DNA of 59,616 nucleotides, filler included, from Sphacelaria rigidula (lineage: Eukaryota): assembly GCA_964200075.2 (NCBI GenBank). It is 5 parts of 5 records of this genome, joined end to end, with 100 filler letters (N's around TTAATTAATTAA, not from the genome) between each part and the next. Parts side by side here need not be neighbours in the genome. Positions count along the whole stretch, not along the records: positions 35,832 to 47,674 come from CAXNAA020004433.1; 4 more parts are not named here. The stretch is one strand, 5' to 3'. Position 1 is the first letter of the stretch, and the number at the start of each line of letters is the position of its first letter. Made by a program: the position numbers and the translations under genes. Positions 36,674-55,000 of this stretch are shown in pieces. The notes beneath the pieces are model-generated. The model saw nothing but the letters and a program-made list of their open reading frames with translations. It searched no databases and was not told the DNA's origin.

Positions 36674-39600
36674 TTACGTCGGCTTGTCAAGCGGCTTCGC
36701 GGATGGTAGGGAGCCTGTAGCAGAACGCGTCTCTCTCGTAGAAATGGGGCCAGTCACTGCATCCACCTTCCTCTTCTTGCTGCCCTTTTTTCCCTGAGAT
36801 TTCCCATTTCCAGCATTTTCACCTTCAGTACTTGCTCGCCTATCGGAAGCACTCTTTACTACCCCAGCAGAGACTACGGGGGCATCCCGTTCGGCATTTC
36901 CTTCATTTGTACTTGTACCACTGACGAGGTGATGCATTTTATCGTCCGCTCTCTCCACACTGTGCTCGGACAACCCCACGTCCACCACCTCGTTCTCATT
37001 GATAATGACACCACTCCCACCCCCACGAACTTGTAACGGCGTACTCCTGGCAGAACCACCCCAACCGTCGTGGTCACCACCACCATTGGGCTTTCCCCCG
37101 CGGGGATCTACCTCTGCCTGGTACTTTTTTGCGTTGATGTCACTCTGGGTGGCCTCCCTCGTTCCAAGGCACCTAAATACTTGAAATGCTGCAACACCAG
37201 CGACACATATTGCGCCAGCTACCTTGAGCGCTGTCACAGTTCGATCACTTAGTCCAGCGACACAAGATCCCGACTCCCGTGTCACCGTTGTTTGCATGGC
37301 GGCATTCTGCCAGAGAGTCCTGAGTTCTGCGCTAGGTGATGGGGGCTCTGTTGCAGATGACAGCAGGAAAGCTCCGTCCACACGGCCCACGAAAGCATTC
37401 GTCGTGAACTCTGGGCCTGTGTGCAGCGCACAACATGAATGCACAAAAAAAGGCCCTATAATTTGCCCTGTGTCTGTTTTGATCGCGATGTGGGACAGGA
37501 GCTTTGCTCTAGGAGCCCCCACGAATGAAATATCCGAGTATAGGGAGATAGATTGGCTTTCGGTGATGTTAGTGCAAAATAAATACACCATCCATGGTTA
37601 AGTTTTGGTGAACTAGAGAAAATTATAGTGCCGGCCAAGGGACAGGAAGCTGTGATCGGTATGCGAGTCTGCAGAGTCAAAGGCCAACCCTGCCCAATTG
37701 CTGCCCGAAGCTTTGCCACACACACCTCCTGGGCAGAAACGTCGAGCGTTGCAATACTGCAGTAGCATGATGTTGTCTCGCCTACCATTGCAGACCGATA
37801 ATTATCTGACCTTGGTAATTCCATGCGAGCTGCAGACGACTTCTCCCGTCTAAGCCAGAGTGTTCCTCCGAAGCTACGTCATTCAGCAGCAGAAGGAAGA
37901 GCGATCCCTCCCCACTTACTTTTTTACCGTAGCCGTCCTCCATGTGAGACCTGAGCGGGCGGCGCAGCCCAGTTCAAGTGAACTCGGAGGTGTCGGAATA
38001 CGAGGCTTCCTGCCGTGAGATCAAGCTCACCGCGCTTGCAACTAAGTACCCACGTACGTGAAAAGCTGTGTGGCGGGGCGTTGATGCTACGAAAACATCA
38101 TGAGAGCAACTATCAGCACTACAGGGAAAATGAAAGGTCTATCCTCCACCCATCGATGAGACGCAACCATCACCAGCTCAAGTATCAGACATGATGCCCG
38201 AGTAGAGAAGAGCCAGAAAATCGAACACTTTCTCACCGCTCGTCATCGAAGAGGAGCAGTAATGGATCCAGTAGGAGGATGTTCTCGCCCTTTAAATCGT
38301 GTGCATTGTCGAACACGACAGCTGCTTGACCAGGGCACATTCGAATCGCAGACGCCACCTTCTCCTTCAGCCACACTACCCCCTGCATGTTACGCATAAA
38401 GATACACCGCGGGGGAACAGGTGGGATGTTATTAGCGACAGCGAATCGAACAGACTGATACACCGACAGACACCGCTTATTTGCTCGACTGGAAAGCTGC
38501 GTTGAATCACGGCCAATGAATATTACACACCTTGGACAATATATGGTCAAAAGTTGGAGTAGACAAGAAACATATGGCATAAATTATAGGTATATTGCGA
38601 CTATTGTCGGCCGGCAATATATGCAATAGGCCTATACTTTATGCAGTACACTTCTCGTCTACTGCATCTGTTGACCATATATTGTCCAGGGTGTGGAATA
38701 TTATAAATAGTATGCATCCGTCTACTGTTTTCAACTCCATGAGTGACAAACATGAAGGCTGCGTTGAATGAAGGTGTCAACATCGGCCGCTCCCCCGGGG
38801 AACCGCCGGCTTCCTGCTTGTTTGTCATCTGAACGCACACCGTTGTCAATAGAATTCAACTCGCCCACGCGGATCACTGTTGCTCGGCGTATCACTTTTG
38901 ATCCCCACGAACTAACTCTGTAGCTGATATCAACACAACTGCTTTTGAACGCCGCCTGCGCGGGCTTGGATACATGTATAATGACTTCACGTTACTCGAT
39001 AGCCATTTTATAGAGATAGCAACTCAGCATGACGCCGGCCGGTCCATCAGAAAGCACAAGCGCAAACAGCTTGGGCTGGAAAAGCGCGGGGACATCGCAT
39101 CCAACATACTGTACAGTCATTAGCTTGTTATCCTAACGTTAACGCTCACGCTCATCTCCACACACCTGCAGCCACTTACCCAAAGACGACATGTACGCGA
39201 TCATGGCTACAGTCCAAGCGCGACTGGGACGTAAATCTGGACCACGCCTGGCATGTTTGCTTGCACCCAACCAGAAATATTTCAACGGAATCGAAGCGCA
39301 CATTAGGTTGGGATGCAAACAACCTTTATCCCGGTCCAAACGCCTTGCATACTGATGGAAACGTTTGTTAGCTTGTATCCAAACACACCGCTTCGAGGCC
39401 TTGCGTCTCGCGCACTTGGGCGGCAGCTGCTAAATCCACCACGGTCACGTGATTCCAAGGTTTTATGTATACAGCCTCCAGCAGAGCCTGGGCAGCCAGT
39501 CTCGGTCCCCACTCTCCACCGCCGATCAACGCGTACACGTGTGGACTGTCAGGCAAGCTGGATAGGACCGTGATAGTTTGAAGCGTACAACAATCAGGGT

Positions 39601-40283
39601 TCATGAGACTGTTGAGGGGCACGCATTTGAGGACCAACGCCCGGATAGGTAGGGTGACTCATGTACAGAGTCGAGCGGTGAGGGAGCCCCTACGTAGTTG
39701 AGGACGAGGGGTTATTTCAAGTCCGAGACTAGACTACCTGGGTGGGGGGCATCCCCGCTCGAGTGCCTACCCGTACACCGGACCACCATCACGGCAATTC
39801 AATTTTAGGGTCGGGTTCGAAACGATGGCGAGGTAGCGCGCACTCGAAAGCGCCGTACGAAAGTACAAGTACAAGTAGCGAAGTGCACGGTAAAGGTTCC
39901 TGCCTGTCTCCTGGGGACGAAAAAAAAAGAAGGGGGCACACATGTTCAAGTACCGAGGGAGTACAATATCCAGAGTCGTACCCCGCTCCGTCTATTCCGC
40001 TGCGACGCTCCAAAGTAAGCTATCTCAGAGACGGTAAAGCACCCGGGCGAAGTCCTCCTTACTTAATAGTTGCATTATTTATAAGTGCACACTGAACACG
40101 ATCCGGCAGGACTTGTGCACACGTGCTGCCATAGTGAAACCAGGAGTAAACGTTCAACGGATATATCCTTCCATGGGGCAACTGCCCAGACAAAACCAGA
40201 CAAGTCGACAAGTCACCTGAGGGCTCCGCTGCGTATGTCGGTGCCGAGACGAGACAGCCCCCTTTCTCCGGGCAGCAAACTCT
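36674..40283 (-). CDS. Torsin/LAP1-LULL1-like AAA+ fold protein with degenerate Walker motifs, C-terminal transmembrane helix and disordered basic tail; 5'-partial
   Basis: Phase-consistent GT-AG exons 40283-40217, 39557-39389, 38382-38237, 37950-37811, 37416-36674 (stop TAA). Translation: SLLPGERGLSRLGTDIRSGALSLPDSPHVYALIGGGEWGPRLAAQALLEAVYIKPWNHVTVVDL...GVVWLKEKVASAIRMCPGQAAVVFDNAHDLKGENILLLDPLLLLFDDERSHMEDGYGKKVSGEGSLFLLLLN...RSRLQLAWNYQGPEFTTNAFVGRVDGAFLL. By eye this is collinear with Torsin (LFGQ..PL.LSLHGWTGTGK..IFIFDE) and ClpB-D2 (LLDE..LLQ.LD.G.LTDG.G..V.F..TIII.TSN). Confidence 0.7.
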
Positions 40284-41089
40284 CTACGCGTGGCGGGTAA
40301 GCACAGGAAGAAAGGGGAAGAAACAGAGCATAGAATCGCGAAAATAGGGCTGATTGATCAACTCATTACCCTGCATTTCTGCTATAACGACATAGAGGGG
40401 AGGAGGGAGGGCTGACATACGTTGTTCACACGACAAGGCATCAGGCCCTGAGAGCTATGAGATTACAACCGCCAAGTCTAACCCCACCACCACACTCTCA
40501 GAATATCTCTAGTGTTTCTGTTGTAGGCTCTGCTTCAATACTGGTGTTGTGTGCAGGCATGCAGTTCGTTTTTTGTCGGCGCTTGCACACCACATGACAA
40601 AGCGAAAAATCATCATTACGGTGATGCTTACTGCACGACCGAGTAGCTACGGGCTCACCGCCGCCTAGGCGCTGCTGCGCTGAATCACACGTGTGCCGTG
40701 CACAGTACCGCTCATGGGATATTCCGGGGTACTATCCTCCGTCACGAAAATGTGTGGAGTATACAGTACCACTGTACGTCTTAGCTCCAATAAATAGTAT
40801 GGCATAGTACCATAGTACCGCACACAGCTTGTCTTCCAATTTTTCCGGCCGACAGACCCCCGAGTTTTCGAGCATAGTTTTTGTAGACATGAAGGGACAC
40901 TAAATAGACAACAGCCGTTAGCAGGAGTGGTGCAGAAGTTAAAAGCTGTAGGCAGTGGGCACTTGGACAGTATTTTGTCATCATTTGCTCCAATGTATCA
41001 TTTCGCCGTGTGCTGACATCTTCGAAAACGCAACACGTACTGCTGGCGCGATTACCGCCGCAACATGCTGCTTAAAATAGGTTGTAACC

Positions 41090-41372
41090 GCCGCGCCGCG
41101 GTGGTGTGATGGTACAAGTGATGCCGTTGGTGTGGGAACAACGTTGGTTCGATTCCCGCAAGATGCGTTCGGGTTTTTTTGTTCCAAGTAACAATTTCCA
41201 CCGTGGACTGAATAGAACAAAACATTTGACAGAGTTTGTTCGATGAGAGTGAATGCGATGCGGGAGTGTTGTTTGTCATGATCCAATCCGCGAGACCAAA
41301 ATGCAAGGCTTGTGCCGGGGGAGAGATGAGTTGATCCCTTGAGACAACGGACTCGTCCCGAGGAGGGGGAGA
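41090..41372 (+). mobile_element. SINE family B copy
   Basis: GCGCCGCGGTGGTGTGATGGTAC (A-box)...GGTTCGATTCCCGCAAGATGCG (B-box), then CCAATCCGCGAGACCAAAATGCAAGGC...GATCCCTTGAGACAACGGACTCGTCCCGAGGA. Confidence 0.75.
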
Positions 41373-42498
41373 GGCTAGAGATGTGCTGCTGGTCGTGGCT
41401 CATGCACGAATGACCATGACTAGTAGCACGTGCGTGGCAACAACCTCTTTTAAATAGCTACTCCGGACCCCTTCAACATCCCCGTTCGTTATTATCCCAC
41501 GTGAGTCCAATGAGGATTCAGGCCGGTAAAACCTTGCGCGACCACGACTGCTGTACTACTATGTTCGAAATCTACTGTCCAGGGGAGGCAACACCGCGGG
41601 CCGCGGCTCATGTACAAATATCTCTGACGCACGGCATACACGCGGCAACTACCTTGTCTATTTTCCAACCCCCCGGCAAGAACAAAACGAGGGAAAACGC
41701 TTTACTGGCGCACAGGTGCCTCGTGGATCAACAAATAACACACATGTCGTGTGAGGATCTACAGAGGGCTTTCGACCAAAGGAAGTATATCATCATGGTC
41801 ATTTGCCCCGAAATGATTTTTTTGTGTACGATCGCGCAATTGGGAAAACACGCCGCAAACGGCACTCTTACTCGAAATCTTCCTGGCAAATCAAGTGAGG
41901 ACATGTGTTGCATCCGTGGCTTGAAAACGAAAAGCGGCAAAAAAAAACTGCCCTCGCCTCATACATACCCTTGAGAGAGATCATCCTAAAATCTAAGTCG
42001 TACACTGTAATAGTAACGTCAGATTTGTACAGGTGCCGCCAATGTCATCTCTTACTCCTAAATACTCGAACCTCTTCTGGACTGGCTTTCCATACCTTTT
42101 CAAGGCGGGTAGGGACTACCCCGACTATCCCATGCAGCTGGCGCGCGCCGCCACCCAAGCCCCCAACAACAGCGACCATGGCACCCGCAGAATTTATTAT
42201 TAACCAGCGCACTGTTGCTATTCATCAAACACAAATATCAAACCTGACGGGTCGTTTCGGAAATAATTATCTCGGTATGTCTGCTCCCTACGTCAAGCGC
42301 TTGTGGACTTGTGGACGTGTCGAGGGTAACTATGTGGCGCTTATATGTTGACATTTCGCTGCTTATCCACAAACGAACGGATGGGGCGAACTAAGGGTTC
42401 TCTCTTGTCAAGCACATCATGATAGCGCCAAGCACCCCTCTCCTGAGGGAGACCGCATGTCCTAGTCGAGAGTTCGTGGAAAGCTTTGGGCTGTACGG

Positions 42499-42858
42499 TG
42501 TGTGTGTGTTGTCGTACCATCTATTCTGGACGCCGCACCACACCTTTCGGTATATGTGGGCGCACCAGTCGGGGTCACACAGGAGGAAGGCCAACACAGG
42601 AGTTATTTTGTTTGTTTGTTTGTTTTAGTACTCCATCTTCCTTCTGCGGTGCTTGCCTTGATTGTTTATCGCGAGAGGGGTTTAACGGTTCCTTTTCCTC
42701 GTTGACCGTTAAGTCGAATTCTGTGTACCCACGACATAGTCGCTCTCCACTGTTGGGTGAGAATTCCAATTTGAGAAAAATCCCAGATCGCTCCTTGAAC
42801 ACACGACCCAACCATCAGAAGGTTTCGAGGTTACCAACTGCGCCACCGGGGCGACCGG
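42499..42858 (-). mobile_element. SINE family A copy
   Basis: Alignable to 1143-1497; minus-strand head CCGGTCGCCCCGGTGGCGCAGTTGGTAACCTCGAAA. Confidence 0.75.
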
Positions 42859-44399
42859 TAGGTGTATCACTGTCATTCTGTATCATGAGATCATGTGGCA
42901 CTCAATAGCCCATTGATAAGAACCACTCGATGTGGCCAATTAACTGTGGTGCCAGCGTGCTATGCACACCTAATAGCAGTCCATGACCAAGTACAAGCCA
43001 AACCTCGAAGAAATTCCGCCTATCCCCTGACGTGCAAAACCGGAAAGCGGGTAGAAAAAATCCACACGTCCAACGACTACGATTCTGAGATGTAGGAGTT
43101 GACTCGAAGTCGCATCTCTGTTTTACTCAATTATGCTCGTTTTTGTTGTCAATTACACCACCTAGAAGGTAGATTATGCTACCCATTATGCTCCATTTTA
43201 TATCATCAGTAGAAAAGAAAGACATGCCATCATGTCCGCCAGGAAGGAGGAATATGATGCAAAAAAAAGTGCTCCCTAGACATCAGTGTTGCCCTTTTAT
43301 TTCTGAATTTGCTCCGTGATGTGCCCACAAAGCGATGCCGCATTATGCCTAAATGCTTACTGCCATGATGCGATCGCAACTGCTAATGTAGTGCTGGAGT
43401 ACGAGCTGGGCCAGCTGACAGTGATTTTTGAATGAAGAGGGGCGATGTGATTGGTGATTCGAAGAGTTAGGCGCTGAAAAATTTACACATGTTCATCATC
43501 AACCCGCGCGACCCTGATGACGGTGCAGAGGAAAATCAAAACGAAACGGGAGGTCAGAGCGAGTTAAAGTTTCAGCAAAAAAAGAAGAAGCCATAACTCC
43601 GTGAAAAAATGATAAAAACCGCTGTACCTCAAACCACGTTGAGGGCACTCGCGTGCAGGACATCCTGTTGAAGTTTCGGCCAGAAATATCACAAATTGGG
43701 CGCCGCATCGCACTTTTCGTGTGACATGGCCGCGACCCTTTGATCTAAGTGATACAGGAGATTCCACTTATTGAGGTAATAAGTTCGGCTCCCGATAGAT
43801 TCTCTTCTTGTTTCATCCGCCCTTAAGGTAATATATGATGCAGAAGATTTATTTTCATTTTTTTTTTCATTCAGCGGCGGCGCCGTGTGTCACCAGGTTG
43901 GTCTGCAGTTCTAAACGATATTCTCAAGTCGCGCTGATTTGGGGAACTTGAGAAGTTGTGGTGTCGGAAGGGAATGCTGGATTTACTGCTGGCCCAGCTT
44001 GTACTGCGACACGCTCTAAATAGTGATCTCCTCAGCTACCAGTCAGCATTCAACCTCCGAACTCATTCGATACAGGAGTGGTGCCTCTTTCCTACCTTCA
44101 TCTGTTGTGGATCTATGCAGCCTTGTATAAACAAATGCCAGTGGATCCGCGGGTGCAGATGACATATACGCTTGCACAGGAACAGGGGACTGTGCCACAG
44201 ACATGCCGCGAGTAGGGACGACATCAGGCGCACCATCTCTGGCTTATGCTTGTGCCACACCTATCTGTCCTCTGTCTTCTGACCTCTGCCCTCGTTCATA
44301 AGTTTTCGCCGTCCATTTTGAATTATTGTACGTTGCCCAGCCCTAAGCCTAACCCCAAGCATTACGAAATTATCCACAGTGGACATTCAAATAGCGAGA

Positions 44400-47000
44400 A
44401 ACATTATTTTGCTGTGAGGGCATGCCTTCGCACTTTTTTTTCGATCGAAAAAATGGGGCGGTGGAATCGATTTGAGCGAATTTTTATCATTCTGCTGCAG
44501 TTGGGTTCAGATGCATTCTCAAGCTTGCGATCGAAAAAAGACAATGAAATTCGTGAAACAGTACATGGTCACTCGTGTACAGTACAAACAGTCTGTACTG
44601 TTTGCAGTGTCTTGAGCGCGTGTTTGCGTGTTTCGTACAGGAGGATATAAAAGAGAAGCGGGCAACGTGCAGTGCAGACAATCCAGGGCCATCAGTCAGT
44701 TCTCTCTGCTTACAACGCGACGTGAAAAGGACTTCAGCAACGTGCAGCTTTGTACTGCCTGCACTGTCCATGAGCTTGCACGCAACTTGGTTGCCAACCG
44801 TACCACGCAGTTTCGTCGCTGATGCCTACCATGAGAGAAGATGCGCAAGTTATCGCCAACAAAACATAAACAAAGCACACCCGACTACTCCAGTGTATCT
44901 ATCCCTGTGCTCAACTCGTGCTCAATGCTGCAGGGCTGAGGTGGTAGCTGAGAATGAGTTGGATGGAGTTTGCATGGTCCTGTGAACAGGTGTTATCTGG
45001 AGTGGTGGTCTGTAAGATGGGAGTCAAGTGCCGCTTCGTACCTTCGACCGCATGTTTTCGATCGAAAATGTTTGTATTTTACTTCGAGTAATTCTTCTCC
45101 GCGCGCCGCTGATTATAATGTTGAGTTGAAGCCTTCTAGGAACATGAATGCGGTGGACCTATCAGATCGCCAAAAAAGATCGACCGCACTTCATCGATCG
45201 CAAAAAAAAAGGCGCTAAAACAAAATTTTATGGCAATCAATCTCGATTCTTACAAATATGAGGATTTCAGCCCGTGTAAATCCGATTTTCTCCCGTGGAT
45301 TGCTTTTTCGGACCCCAGTCCAAAATGAGAGCTAGGCGGATTTTGACACCTTTCGATGCCTCGCTATACTCGTTAAGCCGGTTCCAGCACACCCGTGCGT
45401 TTTCGTGGTAGACGTTTTTTTTTTGGCAACCTTGCATTTTTCTCGGGGAACGGTCATTTTTCACGGAGACCGTCCATGTCCACACAGATTTCCAGTCAAA
45501 TCTATCTCGCTCTCTCTTGGGGCGCAAAAGGATGTAGAAGCTCCAAAAAGGCAATTTTTCAGAATTTTTATTCTTGTTTGCAACAAGAAGCGGCCTACAG
45601 CCGATTCTTCCGCTTCGTTTTTTCCCCTCGTCTTTTGCAAGAAATTACAAGGTAAAAATACCGCTAGAAAAATACGATGAGAGATGTTGGCCCTGCCTCA
45701 CGGTTCCAGATACATCTCTGAGGCGGGTGGGATACCAACAAGTTAACGTACGGTCAGCGGATTTCAATGGGGTGTGCACGCCAAGGCGAGGTACAAAGAC
45801 CCGAAGACTTCGCCATGCCAAGCTTGCTGTGTTGGTGTAAGAGGGCGTGAAAAATAGACCTGCCCCGATCGCTGCTGGCCCAGCTCGTACTGTATGCAAC
45901 CCGACATCTTCATCCTATACTGCCGCATCTCGTATGCGGCAGTACAGACAGCAGTACTGTCTAGTACTGCACTCCTCCACATAATTTTTTGTGCAGCCGT
46001 TGTATATTACCGTCTGCAACCTGACATGTGCGCATGTATACTACCGAATGCGGCAGTACAGGCAGTACCGTAACGCTTAGTTCTGCCTGTACTGCACGTT
46101 GTCCACATCATATCATTGCAGCCGTTGTACACCACTGGCAGCTAACATTTGATCCTGTACTGTTGAATGCGGCAGTGCAAGCTTTGTACTGTCTGCACTG
46201 CGCGTTGTCCAGATCATTTTCGGCAGGTGTTGGGTGCAGCATGGCGTGTGGATCCTACTGTTCAATGCGGCAGTGCAGACAGTACAGCAGTACTGCCTAG
46301 TGTTGTCTGTATTGCACGTTGTCCAGAAACTTCCCATTGTACGCATCATTACTACTACAGCCGTGCGTACTACTGCACTGTTGTGTGCACCTAGAACTCA
46401 CTACATGAGACAGCACAGACAGTATCCTGTAATCTCTGCGCTGGGTAATGTCTAGGTTGCAGGTTTTCGATAGCACCGTCGATGGCAATAAGTCATCAAC
46501 CCCTGGCGATATCTCGCGTGCGCCGGGATGATTAAGCAAAGTTTGGTCTAGTGTGTAAACGGCGCTGGGGATGTTCGACATTGCTGTCAGGAGAGCCCCC
46601 CAGATGTCGAAGAGCACAAGCATATTCAGGGCTGGCGGGCGTTGCTAGTCTGCCGCGCCGCGAATGAAAAAAACGCGAGAAAGATACAAGTCGATCTCGT
46701 CTTGTTTTTGTTTTCGTCAAAAATATGCAAGCCAGGAGGGCCCATCTCGTGGAATTTCCCTCGTCTTGTACTTTTCCCCCGAGAATCTTGTGAAAACCGT
46801 AAGACCAATTTGTATGGCAACCAATCCGTATTTGTACAAATATGAGGCTTTCAGCTCATGTCTATCCGATTTTGTCTCGTGGATTGATTTTTCGGACCCC
46901 AGTCCGTTGGACAATGTCTTTCGCCTAGCTCTGAGGAAACAGGATCAATTCTCCGATTCTCTGGGCGCTGACTTTTGGTTTATAGTATCACCTGAACCAG
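44400..47000. mobile_element. Composite non-autonomous DNA-element region
   Basis: The motif ACAAATATGAG..TTTCAGC recurs at ~45250, ~46835 and ~49515; 44545-44700 is an inverted homolog of 49700-49870. Boundaries approximate. Confidence 0.5.
45930..46330. repeat. Degenerate tandem repeat of ~100-118 bp units
   Basis: TGCGGCAGT(A/G)CA recurs at about 45934, 46049, 46168 and 46266, followed in the last three units by GCACGTTGTCCA-like motifs. Confidence 0.75.
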
Positions 47001-47674
47001 TGAATTGTGAGTTGATATCGCTAGAAGGACATCGCTATGCCGGCTGCCAGACTGTCAGGATCTTAAATCCGCTAGCATTGCTACTACAGTATCTGTACAG
47101 GGATGTTGCCCACTTGTCGAGTATGTGGGGAAGGGTTCATGGAAGAACGCAGCGGTTGCGTGAGACATGCTTAACCTTGACGTGTCGAGTTTTTCGGACC
47201 GGCGAACGTTCAGCCTAGACCCTCACATATGTGATGGAGGCTAGATGCTGGCTATTTTCTCGTCTTCTGCGAGTGTTCATCCCTAACTGGGCGAAGATTG
47301 ACGATGAAGCCGGAAGGATCCATGGCGGTCTGCGAGCCCGGCCGACATTGTGCCTACTATAATCGTCATCAGACAGGAGGTGGTAAAAAAATGGAAACGG
47401 GTGAGAATTGTAAGACCGGGCCATCAACCATCAGCGCCTTATGCAGCCACAGCTGCAGCTCCGACGCCTTGTTGTAGTACCAGTCAACACATCCTCCAAG
47501 TTTCGGCGTCATCACAAGCGAGGTGCGGATTTTCTTGGCGTCTAACCTTTAAAAACACAGCCTCCATGTTATCTAAAAGGAATAACTCTGTCCATCTTTT
47601 CTCTCTCCGTTGAACTCGGGGGAGCTACTTCTCACCGGTTTTCGTGGCGTCGCTCTTCTTATTTCTTTTTCAGA

Positions 47675-47774
47675 NNNNNNNNNNNNNNNNNNNNNNNNNN
47701 NNNNNNNNNNNNNNNNNNTTAATTAATTAANNNNNNNNNNNNNNNNNNNNNNNNNNNNNNNNNNNNNNNNNNNN
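47675..47774. other. Artificial linker/gap between concatenated segments
   Basis: N44-TTAATTAATTAA-N44. Confidence 0.97.
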
Positions 47775-48626
47775 TTTATGTTTTATCGCGAAAGGGGTTG
47801 AGCAGTCCCTTTCCCTCGTCGACTGTGAAGTCGAATTTTAAAGCTGAGCAAAAACGAGGTACATATAAAATAGAAACAGAAATTAAGAACCAAAAGACGA
47901 ATCATGGCCGGGGGGTGGGGAGAGGAGATATAAATGGTTGGGAAAGTGGTACGGTAGATGATACAGCAGAGCTCTTTGTTTTGAGGATATCGGTGTGATT
48001 GCAGGCAAGAGTTTGGACCCTCATTTATAGTTGAGGTGAACGAACCTCTCAGGTACAGGCTGTTGTTGATGTCAGCCCTGTTGGAAGTGCAGTGGAAGTT
48101 CAGTGTGGCGCTGTAAGATTTTATTTTTTTTCTCAATAATGCCGTACTGTTGTTGTGTAGACCAAAGTATAGGCCGACGGGAAAAAAAAAAGCTATAAAG
48201 TTGTTGTTGTTAATGTTGCTGCTGTTGCTGCTTTTGTTGTTATTGTTTCTCACATCAGCCCTTTTCCGGGAATCAACAAAAACAACAACAGCAAAACAAA
48301 ATGAGGAAAGAAAAATAATACGCCCACGAAAATGAAAACACGACGCTCCACAAGTCAGGTTCTTCAAAAAGTATTAACGAGAGAACGTAACAAATTCGCA
48401 AAAGTACACGTACGTCTCGAAAGAACAAGAACAACTGGAATTCATACAAACAAGAAATCGTCGGTTACATGGTACGGGGGCTAGGAGAGGGTGTATATTT
48501 TATTATCGTGTGTGTGTTGCTTTTTCGTTAGTCTCTATTTATTTTTCCACTTTTTTTTTCTTCACTTTTCTTCACTTTTCTTCAGCGAAAGTATCCGTGT
48601 GATTTTCCTATACCTCGGCTATGTCG

Positions 48627-48765
48627 ATCATGTTACCACGGCTGGATCCCTGGAGGATGACTTGACGTGTGACAATCAATCAAATCAAATCAAATCAATC
48701 AAATCAGTCCTGGAGGATGACTTGACGTGCGACAAGCAACCAATCAATCCATCAAATCAATCAAA
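48627..48765 (+). mobile_element. Retroelement 3' end with (CAAAT)n tail, terminal ~30 bp tandemly duplicated
   Basis: CCTGGAGGATGACTTGACGTG(T/C)GACAA followed by (CAAT/CAAAT)n occurs twice in tandem; homolog at 4295-4366. Confidence 0.7.
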
Positions 48766-48867
48766 AAGAGAAATCGCGTGCGTGCGTGCGTGTGTGTTGT
48801 GTGTGTGAGTACGTGCTTTTTGTATTCATTACTTGACTTGACTGCTTGACTTCTCAATTTGGGGAAG

Positions 48868-51800
48868 GTGGTGCTACTACAAGGAGACGGAACGCGTGCT
48901 GGGACAAACGTTCGGGGTCTTGGTTCTCCAAGATTTCGAGGCGTTGACGCCGAATTTGTTGGCGAGGACGATCGAGACGATAGAGGGGGGTGGGCTGGTA
49001 ATCCTGCTGCTCAAGACTGTCACCAGCCTCAAGCAGCTCTACGCCATGTCTATGGACGTACACTCCAGGTATCGTGTGGAACTCCGTGCGTTCCTTTTGT
49101 TGTCTTCTGTATTTCATCGTGTAGAACTTGCTGTGATATTAATTAATTGATACATGTATAATATACAAGGTTCCCCTTCGGGAGGTTGGTACGGGCCTCC
49201 CAGGGGTGATGCAAGTCGAAAATATATGGATATAAGAAGGGCTGTTGTATGTCAATGTACAGGAGTGATCGTGGCTCTAAAAATATCGCGTGTGTTTTCG
49301 GGTGGTGGCTCCGGATAAGGTTGACCAATTTGAGCAACACGGATGGAAGATTGTACAATTGTTGGGCGGCAATACTTTTGACACGTGTGGCATATGCGTA
49401 GCTGCTCATCAGCTGTGCACGTTGTGCAGGACCTTAATGCTCAAATATGTTCAGAATTTATTGAAAAATGATGATTTGCTTGAGATCCACTTTCATGGCG
49501 ATGAATCTCGATTTGTACAAATATGAGAATTTCAGCCCATTTACATGCAATTTTTTCCCGTTGGGCAATGTTTTTCGGCTAGCTGTGAGCAAACCAGATC
49601 AATTCTCCGATTCTATGGACGTTGGCGTTTGGCTCACCACATTTCTGCCCAAATCGGGACACTCCCGCATCTCCCCCGATTTTTTGCATTGTGAGCAGAG
49701 AGAAGTGACAAGTCCTTGGGTGTCTGCACTGTACGTTGCCCGCTTCTCCTTTTTACCCCCCTCCACGAAACACGCACACACGCTCTCAAGACACCTTGCT
49801 TGCAAGCAGTGCAAGCAGTACAGACTATCTGTACTGCACAGGAGTGACCATGTTCCGTTTCACAAATTTCACTGATATAGTACAACCGAGGTGGAGTTTG
49901 TGGTGTTGCCAAATAATGTCGCCTAGGCAGCTATTATAGCTACCTAGCTGTATATTTCGCTCGGGTGAGGTAGTCGTAGTGCACGTGCATGTAATTATTC
50001 TTGTGTTCGGGGAGAAACCCTTGAGCCCTCCGAACACATGGTTGCGGACTTATTGCACTCCAGGGTGCAGTAGAAACCCCCGAGCCCTCCAACCCCATGG
50101 TCGCGGACTTACTGAACTGTACGGTTTTGTTTCGAAAACAAATAGTGCAGTCTGTGGTGTTGCCAGATGATGTCGCCCAGCTATCAATAGCTAACCCTAG
50201 CCATATATCCCCCAGACGGTCGACGAGGGGAAGGCAGTACTGATCCCCCGTCACGAAAAAAATAAAAAGGCAACCACCATAGAAAGATACAGCTCCGAAT
50301 GGGGGACATTGTAGTTCACTTGCTTACAGTGATGTTTGTTCCGCTAGAGTCAAGTTTTTATGCTGTATATCATTGCACGGTAGGTGCAGCCCTGTATGCA
50401 GGACTATGTCTCTAGTACAGCAGCTGCATGCAGTCAGTCTTTAATACAGCAGCTGCATCCAGGACTTTTTTAAAACACTGTGGCTGCCAAGGTACACAGG
50501 CAGCTCACGAAATCTCCATGTGCAGTGCCGGTCGCCCCAGTCGCTCAGTTGGTACTGTAACCTCGAAAATGTTGGGTAGTGGGTTCAAATCTCGGAGCAA
50601 TCTGGGATTTTTTCTCACACCATGCCCAACAGTGGAGAGCGACTATGTCGTGTGTACACAAAAGGAATATGAAGTACTAAACACAAATCAAAAGAAAAAG
50701 CTCATGTGTTGACGTTCCTCCTGTGAGACCACCTGCCACGGCTGGTGCGCGTACATATACCGAAAGGTATAGACTGGCGCCCAGAATAAATGGCACGCTA
50801 CAAACACAACAATACGACCTAGCCGACACCCGAGGAAGTTTCCTCGTGGTCATACGTTTCCAATGGACAGGACCCGTGAGGCCTCAACGTGGAACAATAA
50901 AGGCTGCTCGGTTCGCATGACTGTACGTCTTAACCCTTGGACCGCGGCGCCGGTACTCCATCTCAATCACGCATACTCTTTTCAAGTGAATATCGATGCC
51001 GATTCAGCAGGTGACCTGCCCTCGCGGTCGAAGGATGAACACCGATATCCTTTTTCAACTCATTTTCACTAATGTCCCTAAACATGCTTTTGTGGACTAT
51101 TGGGTTCGCACAACGGGGACCCACATGACCCAGATATGACGGTATTCGACGCTTCATGTCAAGACTAAAGAGGGAGGAATTTGAGATGTTCCGACTTGTG
51201 CTTGTGATGAAGAAATGCCCCGCCATGAACACGCTGCTTTGGTTCGGGTTCTTGTTGAGAGTTTTCCACGATCTCGAGGAGGCTTTCGTGGTTCGGGATC
51301 GACACCCCGCGAAAAAGAGCCAGTGTGGGCGACTTTCGTCGGCCAGGACGCGCGCCACAGGTATCAGATAACACCCAAACCTGAACTGTAATGTACCGCT
51401 GACCCTCCTTCGTGCACTGCAAAACAAGGCGCAGGCTAGGATGCCTTTCAGCCGGAGAAAACTCGGCGAAAGTGGTGAAAAATGTGAAATGAATGTATGT
51501 ATATGGTGTTGCAATCAGCTAATGTGAGATAATCAATCAATGAATCAATCAATGGTTGTCTTTATGATGTATTCACATTAAATATGCCGCAGTCTCCAGG
51601 CTCTTTCTTCTCCACAAGCCTCAGGCATGAATGACCACACTCGAGTAACCATAATGTTTGCTTCGATGTAGCGAATGACGACTGGCGAATATCGTAGAAG
51701 GATGGTCAAAAGTTGGATGCCAATACTGCGAAAGCAAGGCGTTGTTCTACTTTTTTGGCATGCCTTTGTGCAGTGGGATTGATCCTGGGACGGGAGGGGG

Positions 51801-52087: not shown

Positions 52088-55000
52088 TCATCATCCTGTC
52101 GGCCCTGTATTCGCGTCTTGAATGATGCCCCCCTGTTGTGTGTGTGTGTATGTGTGTGTGTGTTTGTGAAGATACATCTCAAGAAGTCTAACCGATGAAA
52201 AAACACCATGTGGGAAGTGCGATCGAAGTTCCGATGGGCTGCGGGAAGCGCTGACCCAAATGCTCCATGCTTCTTTTTGTCCGTGTCCTGGTTGTCACAC
52301 ATTTCAACTCCTGCCCTTCCTCGGGACGCGCTCATGCTTGATCCTCTCCACAGGGATCAGCTCATACATATATACTCTCCCGCGGCACTGTACACGCCTT
52401 CCAATGTTGATGTTGGTATTGCGAGTTGTATCGGCACTCCACTCCCGCACCGCGTCGAATGACGTCTTCGTGCTACTACTCACGTATGTCCCTTAACGTA
52501 TGTCCCTCACATATTCAATCGACGACAGATCAATCAAGTTTTATTTGTTTGTTTTAGAATAAAGAACTAAACACATTTTGCCGGGGATCGAACAAGCATT
52601 TTCCCTCCCGACAGCTCTCGCCATTATTGAAACAAAAAATAATGTTAGGTTTCGAACGGAGAGCTCCGGAGACGTGGTTGGCCGGTTCAACGAACGCTTC
52701 ATGCTGACGCTGGGTGACTGCAGGAGCTGTCTGGTGTGCGACGACGAGCTGAACGTACTCCCTCTATCGTCTCACGCACGGGATATTCAGCCCCTGCCCC
52801 CGGCAGATGGTAAGCTACGCACTGAAGGAGTTTTTTGTTTTTCCTTGATGGAAGGAGGAAAATTTTGTCTGGTTCAGGGGCTCCTAACGATTCCAGATGC
52901 ACAAGAATATGGGTCAGGGCATACCCTTTAGCACATCAAGTTGGGATATCCCCAGCATATTGGAATAGTAATCCTGGCGTACTCTCGCATATCTTCATAA
53001 GTCGTGTTTTGGATGAGATGAAGGGCTCTTAACAATTCTAACCTCAGAAAACATTTGTGTACCCCTACCGCAGCATCACTCTTGACGCATCTATGAGCAC
53101 ATTTTTTTGTGGTATCGACCCCCCCCTATCGTAGCATGGCTCTTTGTGTAGTACTGGTTGCTGCTTTTTTAATGAACCACCTGGGGGGGAAAGAGAGCGG
53201 GGAGGGGGGGGGTGAGGAAGGTGCAATTTCACGAGAAAGAATGAGGAAAGATTTGAGGACGGATCATGACTCCTTGAAGCGCCAGATTCCCTCACACGGC
53301 CCGCTAACAATCTACGGAAAACAAGCCGTTATGGCGAGCAACGTCAAATGAGTCAGCGCTCGGAGGCCGTATTCTCCGGTAGACTTCGTCCCCCTGACCC
53401 TGACCCCTCGAATTTGCTCTTTAACCTAGGGTGTTATTTGGGTGTACTCATGTTTTTTCATGTCGCACTCATATGACCATTGACCTCGCATCCCTACAAA
53501 GCCAGCACGGAGCACGCCGGGTTTTCGCGGGTCAAGGGTTATTTGGGCGTGTTATATACGACGAGGGTTCGATTCCCGATGCGCTGGGTATTTACTTCGT
53601 AGTATCTGATTTCTACTGTGAAAAACGTGAGAACGTGAGTAAACAACGTGGGAGTCGACTGAGTTTGATTCACGTGAGTTGATGCGGTGCGGGAGTGCTG
53701 ATCCAATCCGCGAGACCAAAGTGCAAGGCGTGTACCGGGGGAGAGATTGGATGATCCCTCGAGACCACGGACTCATCCCGAGGAAGAGGAGGGGTTCAAA
53801 GTGCGACAAATGAAATAGTAATGATCATTATAACAAGAACAACAACAAAGAGTATACTGCGTACGGGTGAGGTACACTGAATTCCCCGGAAGGATTCGCT
53901 GACCTCCCACGGATGAACTAGACCAGAACACGTCGTCCTGCTTTTTTGTTCAGGGGGTGGTATATCACGTACCGGTAATGACACAGTCATCGTCATCGCG
54001 AGGTAGGCTTTGCTCGCCCGTTGTCCTCGGTATCCGGCTCACATTGACTGGAGGACCTCAAGTGAGGGGTGTTATTGTACGTATGGGCTAGGGACATCGC
54101 GTCCTATGGTGGGCTTCGATGATCGCCCCCAGAAAAGGAAGCCGAAAAAATATCGCCCACGGGGGTTCATCCAGGGGGGTTGTTGTACACGATGTACTGT
54201 ACCGGCAGTACATACCGTATTCTTAGACCTGCCTGAAGAAAATGCGAAGTACATGGCACGTGTTCACGTGTTGCTCTCTTGTAGTCATGATCTTACATGC
54301 CATAGTCATGGGATCATTGACCTCACATAATTCAAAACCGGTACGGAGCACGCCGGGTTTCTCCGGACCAGACTCTTGTTGCCGGGCGAGGGGGGGTGGT
54401 ACTTTTAAGTAAGGGGTAACACTACCAAGTTCTGTTGTGGGTCGCCTCTGCTCCGCTCCGTGGAAGAAGAGAAGAGGAATTTTTTGAAAATGGGGGGGGG
54501 GGGGGGGGGGTTCACAGAAAGACACATCTTTTGCGCTTTAATTTTTCATACAGTATTTCACGGTTAGGACAAGTCAACTGGTTAGTCATGAGGAGTCGAC
54601 TCGTAAGAATTCTGATTTGTCCTAACCGTGCAGTATTTCATGGTTGTTGGTGCTGTTTTTACGTGACATGATGATACATACACCTGCCCTGGGCGTCGAC
54701 CTTTTTCGAATACTGTCAGCTTCCTAGTTGGACCCTGAACGAACGGGCCTGGGGGGAGATCGGGGGTGGGTGGGGGGTACTCATTTCCTGCTTGCGTTAG
54801 CCATTTGACCGTTGACCACGCGTCACTTTCGATATAGAGTACCGTTCCTGCTCCTGGTAGGAACACGTGTTTGGGGCGTGCGGAAGGGTTGTAATTCGTG
54901 GAGAAACTGCACCGGCAGAGGGAGGAAAACCCGCCGCTACGCACATACGGCGTCTCATCGTCATCCATGCATGATCTGCGGCCGGCAAGCATATAGCTGT

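Follow-up and report, generated by a model that had tools for sequence, protein, structure and literature searches.

What kind of protein is encoded on the minus strand at positions 36674-40283 of the DNA analysed here, a window of 59,616 nucleotides (filler included) from Sphacelaria rigidula (Eukaryota; GenBank assembly GCA_964200075.2) in which positions 35,832 to 47,674 come from CAXNAA020004433.1? The original prediction, made from the sequence alone, saw a membrane-anchored pseudo-ATPase of the AAA+ type, similar to Torsin and to its activators LAP1 and LULL1. We find that the locus is a transcribed, spliced and conserved minus-strand gene, the product of which has at least 420 residues and an incomplete N-terminus. 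Judged by its sequence, this product is most likely a non-catalytic, membrane-held AAA+-like partner protein.

To establish the gene model, contigs of four public runs were aligned to positions 35900-47600. Three of these runs (X1, X2 and X3) belong to one study, P1, and are RNA-like, a type that we guessed; the fourth, X5, is a DNA run from study P2. Contigs of all three RNA-like runs skip the same four stretches, 39558-40216, 38383-39388, 37951-38236 and 37417-37810, and re-reading the sequence showed that each skip is bounded by CT..AC when read on the plus strand, hence by GT..AG on the minus strand. X5 contains none of these joints, and its contigs are continuous across the introns (for example, record 19 at 36322-38555). 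The junctions, previously proposed without RNA, are thus confirmed by four GT..AG joints in three of three RNA-like runs and in none of the one DNA run. Contig depth in X1-X3 is 138-195 on the exons versus 5-19 over parts of the introns, and approximately 490 nucleotides of contig sequence past the stop codon, ending at ~36180, represent the 3' untranslated region. The region as a whole is eukaryote-like DNA with ~50% G+C. Joined accordingly, the exons 40283-40217, 39557-39389, 38382-38237, 37950-37811 and 37416-36674 read in frame through 420 amino acids to a stop codon, in agreement with the five in-phase exons and the partial protein of ~420 residues originally proposed; all strings singled out at that time (LPGE, PHVYALIGGGEWGP, VVWLKEKVASAIRMCPGQAAVVFDN, LLLLFDDERSHMEDGYGKKV, AFVGRV, ALKVAGAICVAGVAAFQVF and KKGSKKRKV) are found in the spliced product. 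Low-depth RNA-like contigs also cover intron sequence at 37389-37839 and 37922-38242, as unspliced precursor or retained introns would give. The parts of the gene are as follows.

40217-40283, minus strand: exon A, partial coding sequence (..SLLPGERGLSRLGTDIRSGAL-S), defined by the 39557/40217 joint in X1-X3 and by the frame; 3' boundary firm, 5' boundary uncertain.
39389-39557, minus strand: exon B, with the predicted first core strand, glycine-rich loop and helix (LPDSPHVYALIGGGEWGPRLAAQALLEAVY..HVTVVDL); both joints in 3/3 RNA-like runs and 0/1 DNA run; 69% identical to the relative P0001.
38237-38382, minus strand: exon C, a predicted helix and the strand VVFDN (38305-38319, putative Walker B position), then LLLDPLLLLFDDE; defined by its joints and by alignment to SVILLDE of ClpB.
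37811-37950, minus strand: exon D, a hairpin-like stretch, SHMEDGYGKKVSGEGS, and the strand LFLLLLN (37881-37901); defined by its joints and aligned by hhalign to ..VIMTSN of ClpB, the putative sensor-1 position.
36674-37416, minus strand: exon E, the last coding exon, with the stop codon; PEFTTNAFVGRVDGAFLLSS, juxtamembrane stretch, predicted membrane helix and 166-residue tail; defined by its joint to exon D at 37415/37810 and by the relatives P0003 and P0005.
36180-36673, minus strand: 3' untranslated region; X1 record 2, X2 record 9 and X3 record 13 extend to ~36179-36194.

How widely is this gene conserved? Four proteins in total came from three word-indexed searches, which covered 5.8 billion protein clusters, and from an exhaustive HMMER search against 1.84 billion representatives (query, the first 100 residues of exon E; expect value E <= 0.001): P0002, which is the window's own last-exon open reading frame (ORF), and three unannotated genomic ORF fragments of relatives. 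Exon B, searched against longer proteins only, found P0001 at 69% identity, and exon E had no match among longer proteins. Among proteins of similar length, exon E found P0002 and P0003, the latter 71% identical; the exhaustive search returned P0003 and P0005, both of them last-exon fragments, with P0005 45% identical over 83 residues (E 1e-4). No annotated protein of the gene was present among the clusters and representatives searched, only unspliced ORF fragments. A metagenome scan with exon E gave no match, and three metagenome matches to exon B, of 13-21 residues, were set aside as driven by the search pattern. The gene, encoding a lineage-restricted, single-pass membrane protein, is found only in a narrow lineage. 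P0002 itself departs from 36677-37597 (minus strand) at a single position, with Pro for Thr in ..AAMQ.TV.., which probably reflects a different strain.

Within this lineage, P0001 retains the exon B pattern PD.PHVYA.IGGG.WGPRL...LLEAVY..PWNHVTVVDL. The stretch GRVDGA.LLSS, including Arg185, is identical in all three exon E sequences, so that the anticipated conservation of the Arg in GRV holds among the close relatives compared. Just before the membrane helix ESG.CV.GLSDR is kept in the same three sequences, and the hydrophobic helix and a Gly-rich stretch are also kept among the exon E fragments. P0003 is identical at 55/62 positions of the pre-membrane stretch and 109/161 of the tail, and P0005 at 29/54 and 55/154, respectively. 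Given that the pre-membrane identity is higher in both relatives, the folded part is more strongly constrained than the tail.

What, then, is the folded part? The spliced protein was compared with profiles built from 81 ClpB-D2 sequences, from ClpA, ClpX, HslU and sigma-54 activators, from FtsH and Lon, and from the Rossmann-type families GpsA, FAD_binding_3, NAD_binding_2, ApbA and ProC. Against the 81 ClpB-D2 sequences, hhalign aligned residues 1-235 with P 0.008-0.012 over 165 columns and no large gap (query 21-194, template 47-221 of 330 columns), and one of 156 shuffled controls reached the real score. The alignment pairs LSLPDSP..YALIGGGEWGPR with LSDPNRP..FLFLGPTGVGKT, GGGEWGPR with GPTGVGKT, AAVVFDN with SVILLDE, LFLLLLN with TVVIMTSN, and PEF..FVGRVD..FLL with PEFINRIDEVVVF, in which FVGRVD falls on FINRID. 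In this register a Pro stands at the Walker A Lys, an Asn at the Walker B Glu, an Asn at sensor 1, and Arg185 on R756 of ClpB; the E. coli ClpB counterparts are K611, E678, N719 (which we take to be sensor 1) and R756. Spacing between the motifs is 64, 46 and 35 residues in the protein versus 67, 41 and 37 in ClpB. One study assigns K611 to Walker A and E678 to Walker B, and identifies R756 as the arginine finger of AAA-2 (PMC5319980). When residues 79-200 are compared alone with ClpB-D2, P is 0.0065, a score that none of 148 global shuffles and one of 148 block shuffles reached. None of 30 Rossmann decoys compared with the ClpB profile reached P 0.012 (score 12-23.9, best P 0.026, 13-62 columns). 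The two motifs on which this register turns are located as follows.

39503-39523, minus strand: GGGEWGP loop at the putative Walker A position, with Pro at the Lys site; also readable as GxGxxG; placed by hhalign, GGGKWGP in a relative.
37376-37393, minus strand: FVGRVD, with Arg185 at 37382-37384; aligned to FINRID of ClpB and invariant in 3/3 sequences.

By this alignment, the protein would lack the means to use ATP. The Walker A pattern GxxxxGK[ST] is absent, since GGGEWGPR has Pro and Arg for Lys and Thr; in the relative's GGGKWGPR, a Lys is present but out of position. The Walker B pattern hhhhDE is likewise absent, as VVFDN has Asn for Glu, and an alternative, ILLLD-P, is also without Glu. 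The replacement of the Walker A Lys by Pro and of the Walker B Glu by Asn, as first proposed, therefore stands in the register obtained by hhalign against ClpB-D2, a borderline match. Only ~40 residues separate AFLLSS, at the last core strand, from the membrane helix, so that there is no lid or sensor-2 domain. As for the motif order of Torsin/ClpB-D2 and the late Arg at the arginine-finger site, both claimed at the outset, they held in part: hhalign recovers the register over its 165 columns and places the invariant Arg185 on R756, but the alignment is statistically borderline and the glycine loop fits a Rossmann profile at P 0.0025.

Several results weigh against AAA+ descent. The score against ClpB-D2 (24-25) is just above the range of the decoys (up to 23.9), and genuine distant AAA+ proteins (FtsH, Lon and sigma-54 activators) score 38-69 in 26 of 28 cases; this position is what is expected of a module without Walker motifs and, equally, of a lucky non-homologue. 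The score comes entirely from residues 79-200, and residues 1-78, with the glycine loop, give P 0.4 alone. The Walker B register is unstable, an alternative using ILLLD with an 11-residue gap. A ClpB-D2 hidden Markov model gave -2.7 bits with hmmsearch and phmmer against E. coli ClpB gave -1.2 bits, the best phmmer path already pairing LLLLFDDERSHMEDGYGKKV...N...FVGRVD with LLQVLDDGRLTDGQGRTV...N...FINRID. Other templates fared poorly: P 0.67 for ClpA-D2 (four sequences), 0.07 for a four-sequence ClpB profile, 0.1 for ClpX, and 0.03-0.05 for HslU, over 14 misplaced columns. The score did not rise when the query included the orthologue fragments (P 0.013). Pfam searches exon by exon, at E up to 10, found no AAA, Torsin, LAP1 or NAD/FAD (nicotinamide or flavin adenine dinucleotide) family; for Torsin (PF06309) this extends to every exon and fragment, a weak negative as each exon covers part of the model. 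Searches of the PDB with phmmer and hmmsearch, per exon, returned nothing or unrelated matches at E 0.03-5. In the ESM Atlas, the best clusters for exon B are unnamed, one of them carrying DNA_pol3_delta on 11% of its members (a lead only), and exon D had no usable match. On balance, we consider the chances about even that the folded part descends from an AAA+ module of the Clp/Hsp100-D2/Torsin type and is catalytically dead.

The same borderline statistics could arise by chance. If the product were a lineage-specific membrane protein unrelated to known nucleotide-binding folds, both profile matches would be accidental, and the near-total absence of homologues (three fragments from close relatives in 5.8 billion clusters and 1.84 billion representatives), the absence of any Pfam or PDB match per exon, and two hhalign P values near 0.01 after about a dozen templates all agree with that, to the detriment of an AAA+ assignment. 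However, the ClpB comparison was fixed in advance and not picked from many, and its alignment runs collinearly through 165 columns and keeps four functional positions in register at similar spacing, whereas decoys align over 62 columns at most. A protein without relation to these folds is thus unlikely, if by no means negligible. Alternatively, the folded part could be a Rossmann-type domain that binds dinucleotides (NAD/FAD). The product would then be membrane-anchored and either oxidoreductase-like or nucleotide-sensing, and its ClpB likeness would be due to chance. In that case HVYALIGGGEWGPRLAAQAL would comprise strand 1, the GxGxxG loop and the helix, and HVTVVD would be strand 2, whose final residue is the acidic one that binds the ribose. 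The fingerprint is indeed present (G34-x-G36-x-x-G39, with Ala four positions later and Asp following the next strand, ..VTVVD), GGG.WGP is kept in P0001, and the absent Lys needs no special explanation. Residues 1-78 match four GpsA sequences with hhalign P 0.0025 (0.0033 with orthologue rows; range to 0.008), which also counts against an AAA+ origin. Yet this match covers only 30-52 columns, and the related profiles do not follow it: NAD_binding_2 gives P 0.15, ApbA 0.24, ProC 0.16-0.47 and FAD_binding_3 0.03-0.1, a pooled profile gives 0.019 over 32 columns, residues 79-235 give 0.44 against GpsA, and exon B matches no NAD/FAD Pfam family even at E 10. We regard the dinucleotide-binding alternative as decidedly unlikely. 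At 39503-39556 (minus strand), the GGG.WGP loop and its flanks fit GpsA (glycerol-3-phosphate dehydrogenase) as well as the remaining protein fits ClpB-D2.

Lost catalytic motifs, together with the absence of an annotated protein from the collections searched, might also suggest a decaying pseudogene or transcriptional noise. This is very improbable, as the frame is intact over five exons and splicing is canonical in three runs. Moreover, relatives with 36-69% identity elsewhere retain this Arg and the 'dead' motifs, and the folded part is better conserved than the tail.

How would an AAA+-like domain be held at a membrane? In the partial product, the folded domain is followed by a hydrophobic helix and then by a long tail. 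The helix claimed in the original prediction is well supported, with a Kyte-Doolittle mean of 1.89 over 19 residues and a hydrophobic counterpart in both P0003 and P0005. An AlphaFold2 model of exon E built with three sequences has a mean predicted local distance difference test score (pLDDT) of 38.9, which is too low to use; in it the hydrophobic stretch is helical and the tail has no structure. The tail of 166 residues is 17% hydrophobic, versus 33% in the N-terminal domain. The relevant features of exon E are listed here.

37238-37276, minus strand: ESGSCVAGLSDRT, a conserved segment with Cys that adjoins the membrane helix on its N-terminal side; the residues E,S,G,C,V,G,L,S,D,R are the same in 3/3 sequences.
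37175-37231, minus strand: predicted transmembrane helix ALKVAGAICVAGVAAFQVF, residues 236-254 of the partial product, by Kyte-Doolittle; hydrophobic in P0003 and P0005.
36764-36790, minus strand: basic cluster KKGSKKRKV, resembling a nuclear localization signal (NLS), 128 residues after the helix.
36707-36736, minus strand: C-terminal motif RETRSATGSL (R.TRS.T..L); R,T,R,S,T,L invariant in 3/3 sequences.

The NLS-like KKGSKKRKV expected in the tail is present, and its cluster recurs among the relatives (KKGSKKRK here, KKGSRKRK in P0003 and KKRESASRKKG in P0005). Proteins in which a long unfolded linker lies between a membrane helix and an NLS are thereby sorted to the inner nuclear membrane. 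The second tail element, R.TRS.T..L, lies within the last 20 residues and is invariant in 3/3 sequences although the surrounding tail diverges. Short Arg/Ser-rich motifs can anchor proteins to nucleosomes, and we presume a resemblance of R.TRS.T..L to nucleosome-binding arginine-anchor motifs, a putative assignment.

Several known systems can be compared with this arrangement. Yeast Heh1 and Heh2 are sorted to the inner nuclear membrane by an NLS and a long unfolded linker; the present protein is similar in having a basic cluster ~128 residues from the helix across a hydrophobic-poor linker, but unlike them it has no LEM domain or other known nuclear-envelope domain. The second module of ClpB/Hsp104 (AAA_2, PF07724) is the sole family with a measurable, borderline profile match, with four positions in register. 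Unlike that module, the present protein lacks the catalytic Lys and Glu and the small domain, is membrane-anchored and is no two-ring chaperone, and the HMMER comparison is not significant. With Torsin it shares the best-fitting template, ClpB-D2, including the stretch from Walker B to sensor 1 (LLLLFDDERSHMEDGYGKKV.. versus LLQVLDDGRLTDGQGRTV..); Torsin, however, has intact motifs and no finger, the opposite pattern to the one here, and the present protein has no lid or sensor-2 domain and carries a mid-chain membrane helix and a long tail.

The most suggestive parallels are with LAP1 and LULL1. A structural study describes LAP1 as an AAA+-like fold closest to ClpB-D2, with no Walker A, a changed Walker B and no C-terminal domain; it also reports that LAP1 has a conserved disulfide and that the Arg at its finger position, which is strictly conserved, stimulates TorsinA (PMC4358337). 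By way of the ClpB-D2 alignment, the present protein similarly would have a core without working Walker A and B and without a lid, a conserved Arg at the arginine-finger position, and conserved Cys residues near the C-terminal end of the domain. Also like LAP1/LULL1, it would be anchored by one membrane helix and have a long part that is non-globular and carries basic, possibly nuclear, signals. By analogy, it may work like LAP1. Two differences are apparent: the order is reversed, domain-helix-tail here versus tail-helix-lumenal domain, so that the type II topology is lacking, and the glycine-rich loop is kept here whereas LAP1 has no recognisable Walker A. The LAP1 Pfam family has no match in any single exon. 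Because family-model matches, Walker A and B, the lid and the LAP1 topology are all lacking, the protein cannot be assigned to Torsin, LAP1/LULL1 or AAA_2. A review places Torsin and its cofactors in metazoans and describes LAP1/LULL1 only for these (PMC7175109).

A reversed LAP1 order would work only if the protein has an N-terminal signal peptide, and this draws attention to the 5' end. For exon A, the only AG acceptor gives a start at 40283, and contigs of X1-X3 match up to 40291 (piece 40217-40291, X2 record 11). The eight letters past the acceptor, 40284-40291, are shared by all three RNA-like runs (75 matching letters each). Further upstream, the spliced contigs carry 39 (X2), 149 (X1) and 198 (X3) nucleotides that are unplaced within 35900-47600. 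No upstream exon ending like the eight shared letters followed by GT or GC was found with up to one mismatch (three poor matches at two), and no U12-type donor motif was found on the gene's strand (two matches, both on the plus strand). A signal-peptide exon starting at ATG 44236 had been proposed, and no RNA-like contig joins it to exon A. Of its two donors, a phase-0 one at 44096 and a weak one of phase 1 after 44170, only the phase-1 donor fits exon A from 40283; its end is unlike the eight shared letters, and the data speak neither for nor against the candidate. As a first exon, the minus-strand ORF 47783-48373 was rejected, being low-complexity and implausible.

The sequence upstream of exon A has no contig cover at 40592-40982, 41374-42155 and 42938-43328. 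Summed contig depth in X5 at 40983-41373, 42156-42937 and 43329-47600 ranges from ~60 to 10,000 times the single-copy level (~75-85), and because this is far above single copy, these stretches appear to hold high-copy repeats. Many DNA-level joints and loose ends fall within the repeat stretches of 40983-47600, over which the high-copy repeat in X5 blurs the depth reading. On the plus strand beyond, a NAT10/TmcA-type RNA cytidine acetyltransferase has exons at 48842-49147 and 52563-52928 (Pfam TmcA_N, E 4.9e-28 and 3.6e-4, respectively); its first exons were not found among 94 plus-strand ORFs in 40150-49147. Rfam gave no match on the window. Paired 44-letter N runs occur approximately every 11.9 kb, at 11846-11945, 23789-23888, 35732-35831 and 47675-47774; they have the look of masking more than of assembly gaps.

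How might such a protein act? In the AAA+-like reading that we prefer, the folded part of roughly 195 residues would be the large alpha/beta subdomain of an AAA+ module that has no lid and does not use ATP, and that has retained the sensor-1 Asn position and the invariant arginine-finger Arg. The protein would then be non-enzymatic and would dock on an active AAA+ partner, to which it might supply the Arg in trans, as LAP1/LULL1 do to Torsin, or which it might merely tether. The tail would hold the protein at the nuclear face of the endoplasmic reticulum (ER) and nuclear envelope. The most specific version of this proposal, drawn by analogy, is a LAP1-like arginine-finger cofactor outside animals in reversed order: a lumenal dead AAA+ domain, a helix, and a tail in the nucleoplasm that bears an NLS and a motif for chromatin contact. 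At the inner nuclear membrane of this lineage, such a cofactor would tether an ATPase of the Torsin/ClpB-D2 type in the ER lumen, or activate it. As a whole, that version is a long shot. The interpretation as an AAA+-like partner is plausible and internally consistent, resting as it does on a borderline alignment.

Torsin with LAP1/LULL1 is a well-known pair in which the ATPase stays inactive until it receives an arginine from a dead AAA+-like neighbour. In the open literature searched, no paper combined 'torsin' with 'stramenopiles', and a search for torsin outside animals gave nothing useful. Should the fold prove otherwise, the gene would still encode a conserved, expressed orphan membrane protein overlooked by current protein collections. 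If the proposal is true, the nuclear-envelope design of an active ATPase and a dead Arg donor would have arisen more than once or would predate Metazoa, and this gene would offer a second, independent system, in a distant eukaryote, for asking what such pairs do at the nuclear envelope.

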